A DNA stretch of 64,000 nucleotides from Escherichia coli (GTDB taxonomy: Bacteria > Pseudomonadota > Gammaproteobacteria > Enterobacterales > Enterobacteriaceae), in NCBI RefSeq assembly GCF_001677475.2, contig NZ_CP015229.1; one strand, given 5' to 3'. The position numbers were made by a program, and so were the translations under genes. The notes under the pieces were generated by a model. That model was given only the letters and a program-made list of their open reading frames with translations. It had not been told where the DNA came from and did no database searches. How positions within the stretch are numbered: the stretch's first letter is position 1; each line of letters starts with the position of its first letter. Positions 231 through 56,631 of the stretch are shown one piece after another.

Positions 231-971
231 TTATTCGGCCTTATTACCTTTATTCTGCTGCTCTATAGAAGCCAGAATCCCGCGCAGGATATTCAATTCC
301 TGGCTTTCCGGGCGCGCACGGGTAAACAGACGGCGCAATTTATTCATCACCTGCCCCGGATGGTTTTCACGAATAAAACCGGTTGCCAGCAGCGTTTGTT
401 CCAGATGACCATAAAAACGCTCCAGATCATCGACCAGCGGATACGGCGTCTCTTCATGCTCGACCTGCTCACCATTTTCCTGAGTTGCCAGCCAGGCCAT
501 GCGCACTTCATAGGCAATAACCTGAACCGCCATCGCCAGATTCAGCGAACTGTATTCCGGGTTAGCGGCAATCGCGACATGATAATGGCATTTCTGCAAC
601 TCTTCATTGGTCAAGCCGACGCGCTCGCGACCAAAAACCAGCGCCACCGGGGTATTTGCCGCTTCAGCGACGCTTTTCAGACCGCATTCGCGCGGGTCGA
701 GCATCGGCCACGGCAGCGTGCGGGAGCGTGCGCTGGTGCCCACCACCAGGCTACAACCGGCTAACGCTTCGTCGAGCGTATCGACGATGTGAGCATTACC
801 AATCACATCGCTGGCCCCTGCTGCCAAGGCAATCGCCTGGGAGTCAGGTTTCACCAGTGGATTAACCAGCCACAGATTGGTTAATCCCATTGTTTTCATG
901 GCACGGGCAACAGAACCCATATTGCCGGTGTGTGACGTCTCCACCAGCACAATTCGAATATTTTGCAGCAT
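231..971 (-). CDS. trmJ: tRNA (cytidine/uridine-2'-O-)-methyltransferase TrmJ (SpoU/TrmH family)
   Basis: 246-aa ORF recognised as TrmJ; position upstream of suhB matches K-12 gene order. Confidence 0.9.
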
Positions 972-50549: not shown

Positions 50550-51884
50550 ATGACTGTAACGACTTTTTCCGAACTTGAACTCGACGAAAGCCTGCTGGAA
50601 GCCCTCCAGGATAAAGGTTTCACTCGCCCGACCGCCATTCAGGCTGCCGCCATTCCGCCTGCGCTCGATGGCCGTGATGTACTCGGTTCTGCGCCGACAG
50701 GCACCGGTAAAACGGCGGCGTATCTGCTGCCAGCGTTGCAGCACCTGCTCGATTTCCCACGTAAGAAATCCGGTCCGCCGCGTATTTTGATCCTCACCCC
50801 AACTCGCGAGCTGGCGATGCAGGTGGCCGATCATGCCCGCGAACTGGCGAAACATACGCATCTGGATATTGCCACCATCACCGGCGGCGTAGCCTATATG
50901 AACCACGCGGAAGTGTTCAGCGAAAATCAGGACATCGTGGTCGCCACGACCGGACGTCTGCTGCAATACATAAAAGAAGAGAACTTCGATTGCCGCGCGG
51001 TTGAAACGCTGATCCTCGACGAAGCAGACCGTATGCTGGATATGGGCTTCGCTCAGGATATCGAACATATTGCTGGCGAAACGCGCTGGCGTAAACAGAC
51101 CCTGCTCTTTTCCGCAACGCTGGAAGGCGATGCGATTCAGGACTTTGCCGAGCGTCTGCTGGAAGATCCGGTGGAGGTTTCTGCCAATCCGTCCACCCGT
51201 GAGCGCAAAAAAATTCATCAGTGGTATTACCGCGCCGATGACCTGGAACATAAAACCGCATTGCTGGTGCATCTGTTAAAACAGCCGGAAGCGACCCGCT
51301 CAATTGTGTTTGTGCGTAAGCGTGAGCGTGTGCATGAGCTGGCAAACTGGCTGCGCGAAGCGGGTATCAACAACTGCTATCTCGAAGGTGAGATGGTACA
51401 GGGCAAGCGTAACGAAGCGATCAAGCGTTTGACCGAAGGTCGCGTAAACGTACTGGTTGCAACCGATGTTGCCGCGCGCGGTATCGACATTCCTGACGTC
51501 AGCCACGTCTTTAACTTCGATATGCCGCGCAGTGGCGATACTTATTTGCACCGTATCGGACGTACCGCGCGCGCCGGTCGTAAAGGCACCGCAATTTCGC
51601 TGGTAGAAGCCCATGACCATCTGCTGCTGGGCAAAGTTGGTCGCTATATTGAAGAGCCAATTAAAGCTCGTGTAATTGATGAGTTACGCCCGAAAACGCG
51701 TGCGCCAAGCGAAAAGCAGACCGGCAAGCCATCGAAGAAAGTACTGGCTAAACGTGCCGAGAAGAAAAAAGCTAAAGAGAAAGAGAAGCCGCGGGTGAAA
51801 AAACGCCATCGCGACACCAAAAATATTGGTAAGCGCCGTAAACCAAGCGGAACGGGCGTGCCACCGCAAACGACAGAAGAGTAA
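50550..51884 (+). CDS. srmB: DEAD-box RNA helicase SrmB
   Basis: 444 aa; motifs [17 protein letters not shown]. Confidence 0.93.
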
Positions 51885-54230: not shown

Positions 54231-54920
54231 ATGGCAAACGAATTAACCTGGCATGACGTGCTGGCTGAAGAGAAGCAACAACCCTATTTTCTTAATACCC
54301 TACAGACCGTCGCCAGCGAGCGGCAGTCCGGCGTCACTATCTATCCGCCACAAAAGGATGTCTTTAACGCGTTCCGCTTTACAGAGTTGGGTGACGTTAA
54401 AGTGGTGATTCTCGGCCAGGATCCTTATCACGGACCGGGACAGGCGCATGGTCTGGCATTTTCCGTTCGCCCCGGCATTGCGACACCGCCGTCACTGCTG
54501 AATATGTATAAAGAGCTGGAAAATACTATTCCCGGTTTCACCCGCCCTAATCATGGTTATCTTGAAAGCTGGGCGCGTCAGGGCGTTCTGCTACTCAATA
54601 CTGTGTTGACGGTTCGCGCAGGTCAGGCGCATTCCCACGCTAGCCTCGGCTGGGAGACCTTCACCGATACAGTCATCAGCCTGATCAACCAGCATCGCGA
54701 AGGCGTGGTGTTTTTGTTGTGGGGATCACATGCACAGAAGAAAGGGGCGATTATAGATAAGCAACGCCATCATGTACTGAAAGCACCGCATCCGTCACCG
54801 CTTTCGGCGCATCGTGGATTCTTTGGCTGTAACCATTTTGTGCTGGCAAATCAGTGGCTGGAACAACATGGCGAGACGCCGATTGACTGGATGCCAGTAT
54901 TACCGGCAGAGAGTGAGTAA
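54231..54920 (+). CDS. ung: Uracil-DNA glycosylase
   Basis: 229 aa; GQDPYH and HPSPLSA motifs. Confidence 0.95.
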
Positions 54921-54967
54921 ATTTGCGGGAAAACGCCGGATGGCAGAGTTACCACCCGGCTGATTTA

Positions 54968-56005
54968 TCAGGCTTTATTCTGACGCCACCATTCACCAAG
55001 TAAAACGCCGGTTGCGACAGAGATATTTAGCCCGGCAACGTTGCCAGTACCGTCAATCTTCACGCGCAAATCGTTCGGATCGCGTGCGGCATCCGGTAAC
55101 CCTTCATATTCCTGACCCAGCACCAGTACCATTTTCGCTGGCAGACTGGTTTTGAACAGCGGTTTCCCCTGCTCGCTGGAAGTGGTCACTACGGTGTAAC
55201 CTGCCTGACGGAAATCATCCAGCACGTTAACAATGTTGTCGCCAGTAATCGGCTGAACGTGCTCTGCGCCGCCTTCTGCGGTACGGATAGCCGCCCCCGA
55301 CTCCAGCAGTGCCGCATCCTGCACCACAACGCCTTTCACGCCGAAGTGCGCGCAGCTGCGCATCATGCCACCCAGGTTATGCGGGTTAGATTCGTTTTCC
55401 AGCGCCAGTACACAATCCTGCGCGCCTGCCTGGCTTACCCACTGCTGTACGGTTGTGCCGTTACGCTTTTTGATCAGGAAGCAAACACCACCGTGATGTT
55501 CCGTGCCTGACGCTTTTGTCAGTTCCGCTTCATCTACCACATGGTACGCTTTGCGGTTTGCCGCCATCCAGCGCAATGCTTCTTTAAAACGTGGCGTTAC
55601 GCTCTGGATAAACCAGGCGCGAACAATCGCTTCCGGACGGCTCTGGAACAGTGCCTGACATGCATTTTCGCCGTAAACGCGGGTTTCTTCCGCACGCTGA
55701 CGACGCAACACTTCCGGATCAATAAAACTTTTACCACTGATGCCACCGTGATCGGCCTTTTCCGGCGTCTCATCACCCGGCGCGCGGGAAACCGTGCGCC
55801 ACGGCGAATCTTCCCACTTGCGGTCACGGGGCTGACTCTGTTTGTCATCGCGGGCGGGGCGACGGCCACCGTCAGCACGAGATTTTCCTGGACGCCCGCC
55901 CCCTTTCCCGGTACGCGGGTTGTGGGTACGTTTATCAGAATCATCATCACTGCGGACATACATCACTTTGACCTTGCCGCTTTTACCTTTCATTTCATCG
56001 TTCAT
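54968..56005 (-). CDS. yfiF: SpoU/TrmH-family RNA 2'-O-methyltransferase with basic N-terminal extension (YfiF)
   Basis: ORF trimmed to [14 protein letters not shown]... (345 aa); N-terminal Arg/Lys/Gly/Asp-rich low-complexity region followed by a SpoU methylase domain. Confidence 0.8.
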
Positions 56006-56211
56006 GCTTTTCTCCACCAGCGCTGCGCGAAGCGCGCAGATTACCCGAAGTCCGCGCGGTTCGCCATGATTTCGTACCAAAGCCTGCGACTATCATACCT
56101 ATTGAATAAAACAGATTGTTGTCTGGAACAATGTCCCCGATAATATGTAACATATTAGAAACATACCGGCGTCGTTGCCGATAAGTCTCCTTACTCATCC
56201 CGAGGTTAGTT

Positions 56212-56631
56212 ATGAATACCGTTTGTACCCATTGTCAGGCCATCAATCGCATTCCCGACGATCGGATCGAAGATGCGGCAAAATGCGGACGCTGCGGTCA
56301 CGACTTGTTTGACGGAGAGGTGATTAATGCGACCGGTGAAACGCTCGACAAATTGCTGAAAGATGATCTACCAGTGGTGATCGACTTCTGGGCACCGTGG
56401 TGCGGCCCCTGCCGTAATTTCGCACCAATTTTTGAAGATGTCGCGCAAGAGCGTAGCGGTAAAGTGCGCTTTGTGAAAGTGAATACCGAAGCTGAACGTG
56501 AATTGAGCAGTCGCTTTGGAATTCGTAGTATACCGACGATCATGATTTTCAAAAACGGTCAGGTTGTCGACATGCTTAATGGCGCAGTACCGAAAGCGCC
56601 GTTCGACAGCTGGCTGAACGAATCTCTTTAA
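56212..56631 (+). CDS. trxC: Thioredoxin 2
   Basis: 139 aa; N-terminal CxxC...CxxC zinc finger and WCGPC active site. Confidence 0.93.

Follow-up and report, generated by a model that had tools for sequence, protein, structure and literature searches.

The closest described counterpart of YfiF is RlmB (YjfH), the 23S rRNA Gm2251 2'-O-methyltransferase of Escherichia coli (PDB 1GZ0), where an L30e-like domain is followed by a SPOUT domain, an order that YfiF shares. RlmB is both its top sequence match (1GZ0, E 2.7e-19, over YfiF residues 108-342) and its top fold match, and the catalytic N/R/E/N residues are common to the two proteins. RlmB, however, has no counterpart of YfiF residues 1-107. 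The same two-domain fold is present in RlmR (Thermus, Um2552), YsgA (Bacillus), TSR/NHR (A1067) and AviRb, which Foldseek aligned with YfiF at a probability of 1.00, with TM-scores of 0.7-0.8 on the target and sequence identities of 16-21%. The common target of these enzymes is 23S rRNA, and this favours rRNA as the likely substrate class of YfiF. The protein itself has been described as a paralogous lineage, born of a duplication within Gammaproteobacteria, in a study that already noted its N-terminal extension (Tkaczuk et al., 2007, PMC1829167). A disordered, charged tail in YfiF is thus known, and the observation, as the earlier note on this DNA worded it, adds nothing to that study or to current annotation. 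Its value is that of a pointer to a known open question rather than that of a discovery: YfiF is among the last SPOUT methyltransferases of E. coli without a known substrate, LasT being another.

By OOPS and iCLIP, YfiF was identified in 2024 as an RNA-binding protein in vivo, with rRNA, tRNA and ncRNAs as targets (PMC11066096); the iCLIP construct was a tagged protein made from a plasmid-borne, arabinose-induced ORF, and this over-expression may broaden the apparent binding. A crosslink motif, AACCUUUACW, has been reported as well, in 23S rRNA. According to the same work, deletion of yfiF slows growth, reportedly the most among the uncharacterised RNA-binding proteins tested, and the protein interacts physically with Rne, Rnr, RluC and PhoL (PMC11066096). 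Methylation of rRNA or tRNA by YfiF is put forward there only as a hypothesis, in line with the earlier note's remark that the substrate is not obvious, and we found in that article no mention of the tail or of disorder. YfiF also co-purifies with ribosomal proteins and rRNA-modification enzymes (PMC3384335), and a list of RNase E partners enriched in large crosslinked particles includes it alongside deaD, srmB, rhlB and rluB (PMC13106914). [quoted passage not shown]

The yfiF locus and the folded body of its product

The DNA studied here is a stretch of 64,000 nucleotides from E. coli (contig NZ_CP015229.1), hereafter the window. The yfiF coding sequence occupies 54968..56005 on the minus strand, 345 codons and a stop (ATG 56005-56003, TGA 54970-54968), and a check of the ORF translation found the coordinates given by the earlier note to be exact. 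Its naming of the gene as yfiF, coding for a SpoU/SPOUT enzyme, agrees with the Pfam domains, with the NCBIfam YfiF equivalog and with E. coli annotation. In 5425 of the 5426 complete E. coli genomes, the match at the DNA level is to yfiF, annotated 'tRNA/rRNA methyltransferase' and flanked by ung and trxC; these neighbours, trxC divergent and ung convergent, are constant in the window, in E. coli genomes and in six other genera. The equivalog model NF008117 / PRK10864 (YfiF) is matched at 667.6 bits for a cut-off of 267, with protein residues 1-345 lying on profile positions 1-344 of 344, N-terminal extension included. By contrast, the scores against the RlmB equivalogs TIGR00186 and NF008386 fall below their cut-offs (117.8 versus 160.15 bits and 92 versus 366 bits, respectively), so that YfiF is an RlmB-like paralog of RlmB and not RlmB itself, so far seen only in Gammaproteobacteria. 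A 200-aa antisense ORF at 55541..56143 on the plus strand was rejected, as the codon-position pattern of substitutions fits the minus-strand yfiF frame.

Two domains make up the body of the protein. Residues 110-181 (55463..55678, minus strand) form the L30e-like RNA 2'-O-ribose methyltransferase substrate-binding domain (SpoU_sub_bind, Pfam PF08032, 55.8 bits for a cut-off of 22.8), and residues 199-336 (54998..55411, minus strand) the SPOUT catalytic domain (SpoU_methylase, Pfam PF00588, 110.3 bits for a cut-off of 29.7), which places the protein in the SpoU/TrmH family. In an AlphaFold2 model built on a 92-sequence alignment, residues 108-345 have a pLDDT above 90, rising above 95 in the L30e-like domain, where dN/dS is as low as 0.031; it is 0.13 in the catalytic domain. 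When this model was submitted to Foldseek, the top matches were all SPOUT methyltransferases, at a probability of 1.00 and with RlmB, RlmR, NHR/TSR and YsgA as the best of them, pointing to a SPOUT-like alpha/beta fold.

N210, R216, E299 and N327 of YfiF are invariant across 16 genera and, in the alignment with 1GZ0, fall on the HNLG..R, GxEGEG and LNVS motifs of RlmB. Their counterparts there we take to be N108, R114, E198 and N226. That YfiF keeps the conserved catalytic and SAM-pocket residues of 2'-O-methyltransferases had been recognized before (PMC1829167). With all four RlmB-type catalytic residues intact, YfiF is most likely an active, dimeric, SAM-dependent RNA ribose 2'-O-methyltransferase. 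Its orthologs in Orbales have Q where E. coli has E299, a hint that catalysis may not be the function conserved throughout the family.

A tail in three parts, predicted to be disordered

Residues 1 to about 107 lie outside every Pfam domain and every solved structure. Submitted alone, residues 1-108 gave zero matches to Pfam or to PDB chains at E<=10, and the tail is therefore not a known domain. Its composition over residues 1-107 (R 14%, D 12%, G 12%, K 10%, with 15 hydrophobic residues only) is the Arg/Lys/Gly/Asp-rich one that had been read from the sequence. The disorder check was also run: residues 1-95 are modelled at a pLDDT of about 50 and without secondary structure in the same AlphaFold2 run, and the tail is predicted to be intrinsically disordered, as the earlier note had thought. 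When the 50 non-overlapping ORFs of the window that reach 150 aa are compared, the most hydrophilic 80-aa stretch is the one in this tail: its mean Kyte-Doolittle value is -1.96 (window median -0.70), and 10% of its residues are hydrophobic and 45% charged.

Two adjectives of the initial description, 'highly basic' and 'low-complexity', hold for the centre of the tail and not for the whole of it. Taken together, residues 1-107 are a polyampholyte (26 K/R, 20 D/E, net +6); the strongly basic part is residues 25-63 only (14 K/R, 4 D/E), between slightly acidic flanks. Since a net charge of +6 is modest and the flanks are slightly acidic, any electrostatic tethering would depend on this 39-residue core. 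Low complexity is likewise confined to the central linker, at residues 38 to about 66, while the sequence on either side of it (residues 1-37 and 67-107) consists of conserved motifs; sequence entropy is 3.81 bits for the whole tail versus 4.10 for the body.

The three parts evolve in distinct ways, as seen in 81 species of Enterobacteriaceae. This set comes from a genome-collection scan with alignment of the N-terminal half, where the best 80 of 461 relatives, all of them Enterobacteriaceae, were used, and the statistics on the linker and on the leader described below hold for that family. Motif 1 (residues 1-37, 55895..56005, minus strand) is short and predicted to be disordered, at a pLDDT of about 50. 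It has many residues invariant across 16 genera, a dN/dS of 0.089 and a mean pairwise amino acid identity of 93% versus 70% identity at third codon positions in the 81 species; its core, K-V-[KR]-[VI]-M-Y-V / K-P-T-V-F-Y, is kept in the orthologs of Sodalis, Symbiopectobacterium and Orbales. The basic linker (residues 38-66, 55808..55894, minus strand) is variable, with a dN/dS of 0.26 and in-frame indels. Between the end of NPRTGKG and SPW, it spans 31 to 62 aa in the 81 Enterobacteriaceae species, the longer forms arising by expansion of RKRDD / DRPR repeats, and its composition is R 29%, D 17% and G 15.5%. Despite this twofold change in length, the net charge of the linker stays between +3 and +6 and that of the whole tail between +6 and +9. 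Motif 2 and the helix that precedes the folded body (residues 67-107, 55685..55807, minus strand) show a dN/dS of 0.055 and 92% amino acid identity versus 57% at third positions, and SPW and YGENAC are spaced 44 aa apart without exception in the 81 species. AlphaFold2 places the helix at residues 97-106, abutting the L30e-like domain, and its motif QR.[DE]E..[IV]YG is also seen in distant tailed homologs. Both motifs are thus more constrained than the catalytic domain (dN/dS 0.089 and 0.055 versus 0.13), and the AlphaFold2 model has no intramolecular docking of either.

A tail is also a mark of the clade: the 150 closest relatives include 97 full-length cluster representatives, and 54 of these have a tail of at least 40 aa, nearly always net positive. 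The tails of distant homologs, 40-369 aa long, are non-homologous to that of YfiF, and the tailed relatives that bear a name are few and all from Gammaproteobacteria. A net positive charge of the tail has been kept in evolution, modest as it is and confined to the core.

Translation start and upstream leader

The raw ORF is open upstream as far as a TTG at 56080, so that the start is not readable from the ORF alone, and it contains two in-frame internal methionine codons, M5 and M15. One might then suppose that the annotated N-terminus is an artefact, translation beginning at Met15 or beyond the tail, with the basic region not in the protein. We give this almost no credence, as comparative data already contradict it. 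In the 81 species, 8 of the 12 codons from 3 to 14 differ at their third position and only 3 of the 12 at their first or second, and residues 6-14, upstream of Met15, show little or no variation across 16 genera, while M5 lacks conservation (L, M, F and I occur there). All 81 species have a GGAG at 6-7 nt from the ATG and, upstream, an in-frame stop; one-nucleotide indels just before M1 disrupt the frame, and the NCBIfam equivalog spans residues 1-345. Because the flanks of the tail are conserved at the protein level, as their low dN/dS indicates, comparison of sequences places the beginning of yfiF translation at the annotated ATG, and the tail is translated. The earlier note had named a translation start downstream of the basic region as what would count against its own reading; the pattern in codons 3-14 and the dN/dS of 0.089 for residues 1-37 speak against such a start.

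Directly upstream of the start codon, a block of about 45 nt (ACTTCGGGTAATCTGCGCGCTTCGCGCAGCGCTGGTGGAGAAAAGC, 56006..56051, minus strand) hardly varies within Enterobacteriaceae; in E. coli genomes it occurs once and carries no annotation. Its mean pairwise nucleotide identity in the 81 species is 0.90 versus 0.57-0.70 at neighbouring third codon positions. It contains the GGAG Shine-Dalgarno sequence (56012-56015, minus strand), a GC palindrome (56023-56039, minus strand) and a GGTAATCT box. An Rfam search of 55800-56300 at permissive E-values returned only a chance snoRNA match (E 2.4), so that the leader does not correspond to an RNA family already described. A conserved hairpin was considered and found unsupported: folding of the leader RNA from E. 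coli and four other lineages gave z-scores from -0.71 to +0.75, none significant, and where the 5' arm of the palindrome varies between G and T, the other arm shows no compensation. A consensus promoter scan of 54800-56300 returned zero sigma-70-like sites at the thresholds used. Reading by hand, one may guess at a candidate promoter with a -35 TGGCKA, a 17 nt spacer, a -10 TAATCT and a GC-rich discriminator, each hexamer matching at 3 of 6 positions. The accessible part of the supplement text of PMC11066096 gives no positions for the iCLIP crosslinks of YfiF to its 'own mRNA', and since the ORF used there was plasmid-borne, those data say nothing on the native leader.

What the tail may do, and how YfiF compares with known systems

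The identity of the gene, its architecture, the intact catalytic residues, the translation and predicted disorder of the tail and the pattern of its conservation are directly supported; from these we infer RNA tethering by the tail, docking of its motifs and the class of the substrate. Put together, YfiF would be an RlmB-paralog methyltransferase with a translated, disordered, three-part tail serving these ends, a reading that we hold to be probable on balance. In this scheme, the basic linker would attract large RNAs electrostatically and without specificity (pre-ribosomal particles, tRNA and abundant ncRNAs, for instance); motifs 1 and 2 might fold upon binding a specific RNA surface or a protein partner, thus positioning the enzyme; and the L30e-like and SPOUT domains would then choose the nucleotide. 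The L30e-like domain is as obvious an RNA-binding module as the tail. The most probable class of substrate is the rRNA of 50S particles under assembly, given the known targets of the closest relatives and the reported co-purification with ribosomal proteins. To our knowledge, all known Nm sites of E. coli rRNA and tRNA already have their enzymes (RsmI, RlmB, RlmM, RlmE, TrmH, TrmJ and TrmL). With no orphan Nm site left, modification by YfiF may be conditional or sub-stoichiometric, or YfiF may be mainly an assembly factor.

Other roles for the tail have to be weighed against tethering. It could serve mainly for protein-protein contacts or for partitioning into condensates, for example with the RNase E degradosome or with helicases such as SrmB and DeaD, the motifs docking and the linker acting as a spacer. 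Two short, highly conserved stretches in a disordered region are what one expects of linear docking motifs, the net charge of the mixed-charge R/D linker is maintained, and both the reported contacts of YfiF (PMC11066096) and its place among RNase E interactors (PMC13106914) would fit. Yet these interactions were seen in large-scale screens, where RNA could be the bridge between the partners, and no partner motif is known. We see this as a minority view that still carries appreciable weight; it is compatible with RNA binding, and both could hold. The tail might otherwise be a tolerated, largely functionless appendage, junk disorder produced by repeat expansion. The linker does grow and shrink by RKRDD / DRPR repeats, its dN/dS exceeds that of every other part of the gene, and the tails of distant homologs are unrelated; but the constraint on motifs 1 and 2 exceeds that on the catalytic domain, the spacing from SPW to the domain is fixed, the charge of the linker is held while its length doubles, and tails persist in more than half of the representatives examined, all of which makes such an appendage very unlikely. 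Less probable still is that the tail binds DNA or the nucleoid, YfiF acting in the timing of chromosome replication and not on RNA. Basic disordered tails bind any polyanion, and the replication effect of 2021, as cited in PMC11066096, would be accounted for; however, the body has the canonical fold of an RNA 2'-O-methyltransferase, together with an L30e-like domain for RNA binding, YfiF was recovered by the RNA-dependent OOPS and iCLIP (PMC11066096), and replication phenotypes are commonly indirect, resulting from translation or growth defects.

A more elaborate scenario would have the two Enterobacterales-specific motifs and the charge-conserved R/D/G linker act as a bipartite docking device recruiting YfiF to a specific pre-50S or degradosome-associated particle, with the leader as an operator for autoregulation by YfiF or for growth-rate or stringent control. 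We think this rather unlikely. If true, it would make YfiF a regulated ribosome-biogenesis factor with conditional methylation, explaining the absence of an orphan Nm site. Identifying the part of YfiF that finds the target is the practical way to its substrate, and the motif-linker-motif layout of the tail lends itself to concrete truncation and point-mutant designs.

The mitochondrial RlmB-like proteins MRM1/Pet56 and MRM3/RNMTL1 match the YfiF model in Foldseek, within assembly intermediates of the mitoribosome large subunit. Their substrates are known, for instance Gm at the P-loop. A search with the tail of YfiF alone gave no relative among solved structures. The extensions of eukaryotic MRM1 and MRM3 include organelle-targeting sequences. 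Within the window, TrmJ (231..971, minus strand, 246 aa) is a SPOUT 2'-O-methyltransferase like YfiF, but it belongs to the TrmJ/YjtD subfamily and has no N-terminal tail, in agreement with the contrast to compact TrmJ drawn in the earlier note. SrmB, from the same window, is a parallel in design: it too is an enzyme of ribosome biogenesis and RNA handling that carries a K/R-rich, hydrophilic, non-domain extension, and its C-terminus is the second most hydrophilic 80-aa stretch there. The two are not homologous; the tail of SrmB is C-terminal and Lys-rich, and that of YfiF N-terminal and rich in Arg, Asp and Gly.

The yfiF locus and its folded body

The yfiF reading frame (window 54968..56005, minus strand; 345 codons and a TGA stop) lies between ung and trxC, as it does in complete E. 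coli genomes, where its DNA is present once each in 5425 of 5426 and is annotated as 'yfiF: tRNA/rRNA methyltransferase'. That annotation, a Pfam match to SpoU_methylase (residues 199-336) and a match of the NCBIfam YfiF equivalog model over the whole length (667.6 bits, cut-off 267) bear out the earlier note's call of a YfiF-type SpoU methyltransferase. The Pfam domain SpoU_sub_bind, L30e-like, occupies residues 110-181. The nearest solved structure by sequence is that of the E. coli 23S rRNA Gm2251 methyltransferase RlmB (1GZ0, E 2.7e-19), which aligns with residues 108-342 and has no counterpart of residues 1-107; both NCBIfam models for the RlmB equivalog score YfiF under their cut-offs. 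An AlphaFold2 model built on 92 homologs gives residues 108-345 a pLDDT >90. Residues N210, R216, E299 and N327 line up with the RlmB catalytic motifs and are invariant in an alignment of 16 enterobacterial genera; all residues characteristic of 2'-O-methyltransferases had been found conserved in YfiF (Tkaczuk et al., PMC1829167). The commonest E. coli YfiF differs from that of the window by a single residue, V for A160. None of the 5426 complete E. coli genomes exceeds 98.7% nucleotide identity with window 54900..56250, and residues 1-200 have 100% matches in two genomes labelled 'Escherichia sp.'. The source is therefore an Escherichia, perhaps of a slightly divergent lineage and not a typical E. 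coli.

A translated tail of two motifs and a linker

The tail, residues 1-107, is a feature that the compact TrmJ (231..971, minus strand, 246 aa) lacks, a contrast already drawn in the earlier note. Used as sole query, residues 1-108 drew no match from either Pfam or the PDB. The tail is the most hydrophilic 80-aa stretch among 50 long ORFs of the window, and the disorder expected of it is predicted: in the AlphaFold2 model residues 1-95 have a pLDDT of about 50 and lack secondary structure, with a helix at residues 97-106. It had also been described as highly basic and of low complexity. A composition rich in R, D, G and K is confirmed (R 14%, D 12%, G 12%, K 10%, with 15 hydrophobic residues), but the strong basicity belongs to a core, residues 25-63, where 14 K/R face 4 D/E (net +10, counted); residues 1-24 and 64-107 count net -1 and -3, so that the whole tail, with 26 K/R against 20 D/E, reaches only net +6.

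Nor is the tail uniform. Alignments of 16 genera and of 81 Enterobacteriaceae species (from the best 80 of 461 relatives) divide it into two motifs separated by a linker. Motif 1 (residues 1-37) keeps a mean pairwise amino acid identity of 93% with third codon positions at 70%, and motif 2 (residues 67-107) 92% with third positions at 57%. Their dN/dS values, calculated over seven genera, are 0.089 and 0.055, as compared with 0.031 for the L30e-like domain (residues 108-190) and 0.13 for the SPOUT domain (residues 191-345); judged by these substitution rates, the motifs are constrained at least as much as the catalytic domain. SPW and YGENAC stand exactly 44 residues apart in every one of the 81 species. 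The linker (residues 38-66, window 55808..55894, minus strand; dN/dS 0.26) follows a different track, with in-frame indels that make it 31-62 aa long when counted from the end of NPRTGKG to SPW. Across the 81 species (loci L011-L090) it is composed of 29% R, 17% D and 15.5% G, is shortest in E. coli, and doubles from 31 to 62 aa by expansion of RKRDD / DRPR repeats. As its length doubles while its net charge stays between +3 and +6, selection on the linker suggests itself as acting on bulk charge, not on sequence.

A translation start downstream of the basic region would remove the tail, and the comparative data speak against it. In the 81 species, codons 3-14, which precede the internal Met15, vary at the third position in 8 of 12 codons and at the first or second in only 3 of 12. 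Met5 is unconserved in this set, and all 81 species have a GGAG 6-7 nt 5' of Met1 and an in-frame stop upstream of it. These stops, together with one-nucleotide indels that break the frame immediately 5' of the ATG, make the extension proposed by an ORF finder to a TTG at 56080 non-coding. A 200-aa ORF that overlaps the leader and the first third of yfiF on the opposite strand (55541..56143, plus strand) is most likely spurious, substitutions tracking the yfiF frame.

Among cluster representatives, an exhaustive search with HMMER yielded 355 proteins at E<=1e-30; of the best 150 of these, 97 appear full-length, and in 54 of the 97 the N-terminal tail measures 40 aa or more (maximum 369 aa) and is almost always net positive and 30-58% charged. 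Within the same best 150, motif 1 is common to E. coli and only seven clusters, the named ones being Symbiopectobacterium, Sodalis and Zophobihabitans (Orbales). The remaining tails, often made of R/D/G/P repeats, cannot be aligned with that of E. coli. The few named distant homologs (Pseudoalteromonas, Corallincola and one MAG) are all Gammaproteobacteria, in agreement with the rlmB duplication proposed within this class (Tkaczuk et al., PMC1829167). Three Orbales-type orthologs (P0157, P0164 and P0175; locus L009 1501-2826) retain the N-terminal K-P-T-V-F-Y and SPW motifs and have FQQ(V/I)N where E. coli has GQEYEG; since Q there replaces E299, catalysis may not be kept throughout the family.

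A conserved leader and its neighbourhood

Immediately 5' of the yfiF ATG, a 45-nt block (56006..56051, minus strand), ACTTCGGGTAATCTGCGCGCTTCGCGCAGCGCTGGTGGAGAAAAGC, is nearly invariant, far above the conservation of neutral sites: its mean pairwise identity in the 81 species is 0.90, against 0.57-0.70 at adjacent third codon positions. It occurs once in E. coli genomes, where it carries no annotation. Its GGTAATCT box is kept in Symbiopectobacterium and Sodalis, appears as TGTAATCT in one further contig and is missing from the Orbales ortholog. No Rfam family matched the leader, its fold stability had no significance, and a G/T polymorphism in its palindrome is uncompensated, with no covariation. 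Read by eye, the block may hold a weak promoter whose discriminator is GC-rich; it may also be a leader operator. In the trxC-proximal part of the trxC-yfiF intergenic region, at 56090..56211, seven genera share the blocks ATGTTTC..ATGTTACATATTATC and ATAG-type repeats, which we take to be probably the OxyR-regulated trxC promoter with its OxyR site. About 3 kb from yfiF lies the gene of SrmB, a DEAD-box helicase of 50S assembly (50550..51884, plus strand); its C-terminal 80 or so residues form a Lys-rich basic tail, the second most hydrophilic stretch of the window, making it a second ribosome-biogenesis enzyme there with a basic tail, in this case beyond the helicase core.

Proposed role of the tail and likely substrates

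To our knowledge, all known 2'-O-methyl sites of E. coli rRNA and tRNA are already assigned to enzymes, and YfiF therefore stays an orphan. The substrate, which the earlier note found not obvious, is likewise not reported in the literature matching a full-text search for 'YfiF'. Both this question and the N-terminal extension were already in the literature, the extension since 2007 (Tkaczuk et al., PMC1829167); the present analysis adds the fine structure of the tail, evidence of its translation and selection, and the conserved leader. Deletion of yfiF caused the strongest growth defect of the uncharacterised RNA-binding proteins tested in a study where methylation of rRNA or tRNA is the authors' hypothesis only, where iCLIP used a tagged, plasmid-borne, arabinose-induced YfiF, and where the tail and its disorder go unmentioned (PMC11066096). 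YfiF is recovered there as an RNA-binding protein, with rRNA, tRNA and ncRNAs as its iCLIP targets. Earlier data mining lists YfiF with proteins that co-purify with ribosomal proteins and with enzymes that modify rRNA (PMC3384335), and proteomics of 2026 counts it with those partners of RNase E that are enriched in large particles (PMC13106914).

On the most likely reading, YfiF works on large RNAs as a dimeric ribose methyltransferase of the SPOUT type or as an assembly factor, with assembling 50S particles as the most probable target. The basic, charge-conserved linker of the disordered tail would provide non-specific electrostatic capture, motifs 1 and 2 would fold upon binding and bring specific positioning, after which the choice of nucleotide would fall to the two folded domains, L30e-like and SPOUT. 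The data establish the identity of the gene, its domain layout, the intact catalytic residues, the translation and predicted disorder of the tail and its pattern of conservation. The binding role previously read into the tail is a reasonable inference, and the partner of the motifs may be RNA or protein. The main rival has motifs 1 and 2 docking a protein partner, the degradosome or a helicase for example, and it fits the same data. As for the substrate class, rRNA would be in keeping with the nearest relatives of the folded body. The top Foldseek matches of the YfiF model are RlmB, together with RlmR, YsgA, TSR/NHR and AviRb, which are L30e-SPOUT 2'-O-methyltransferases of 23S rRNA, and MRM-type enzymes, which sit within mitoribosome assembly intermediates.
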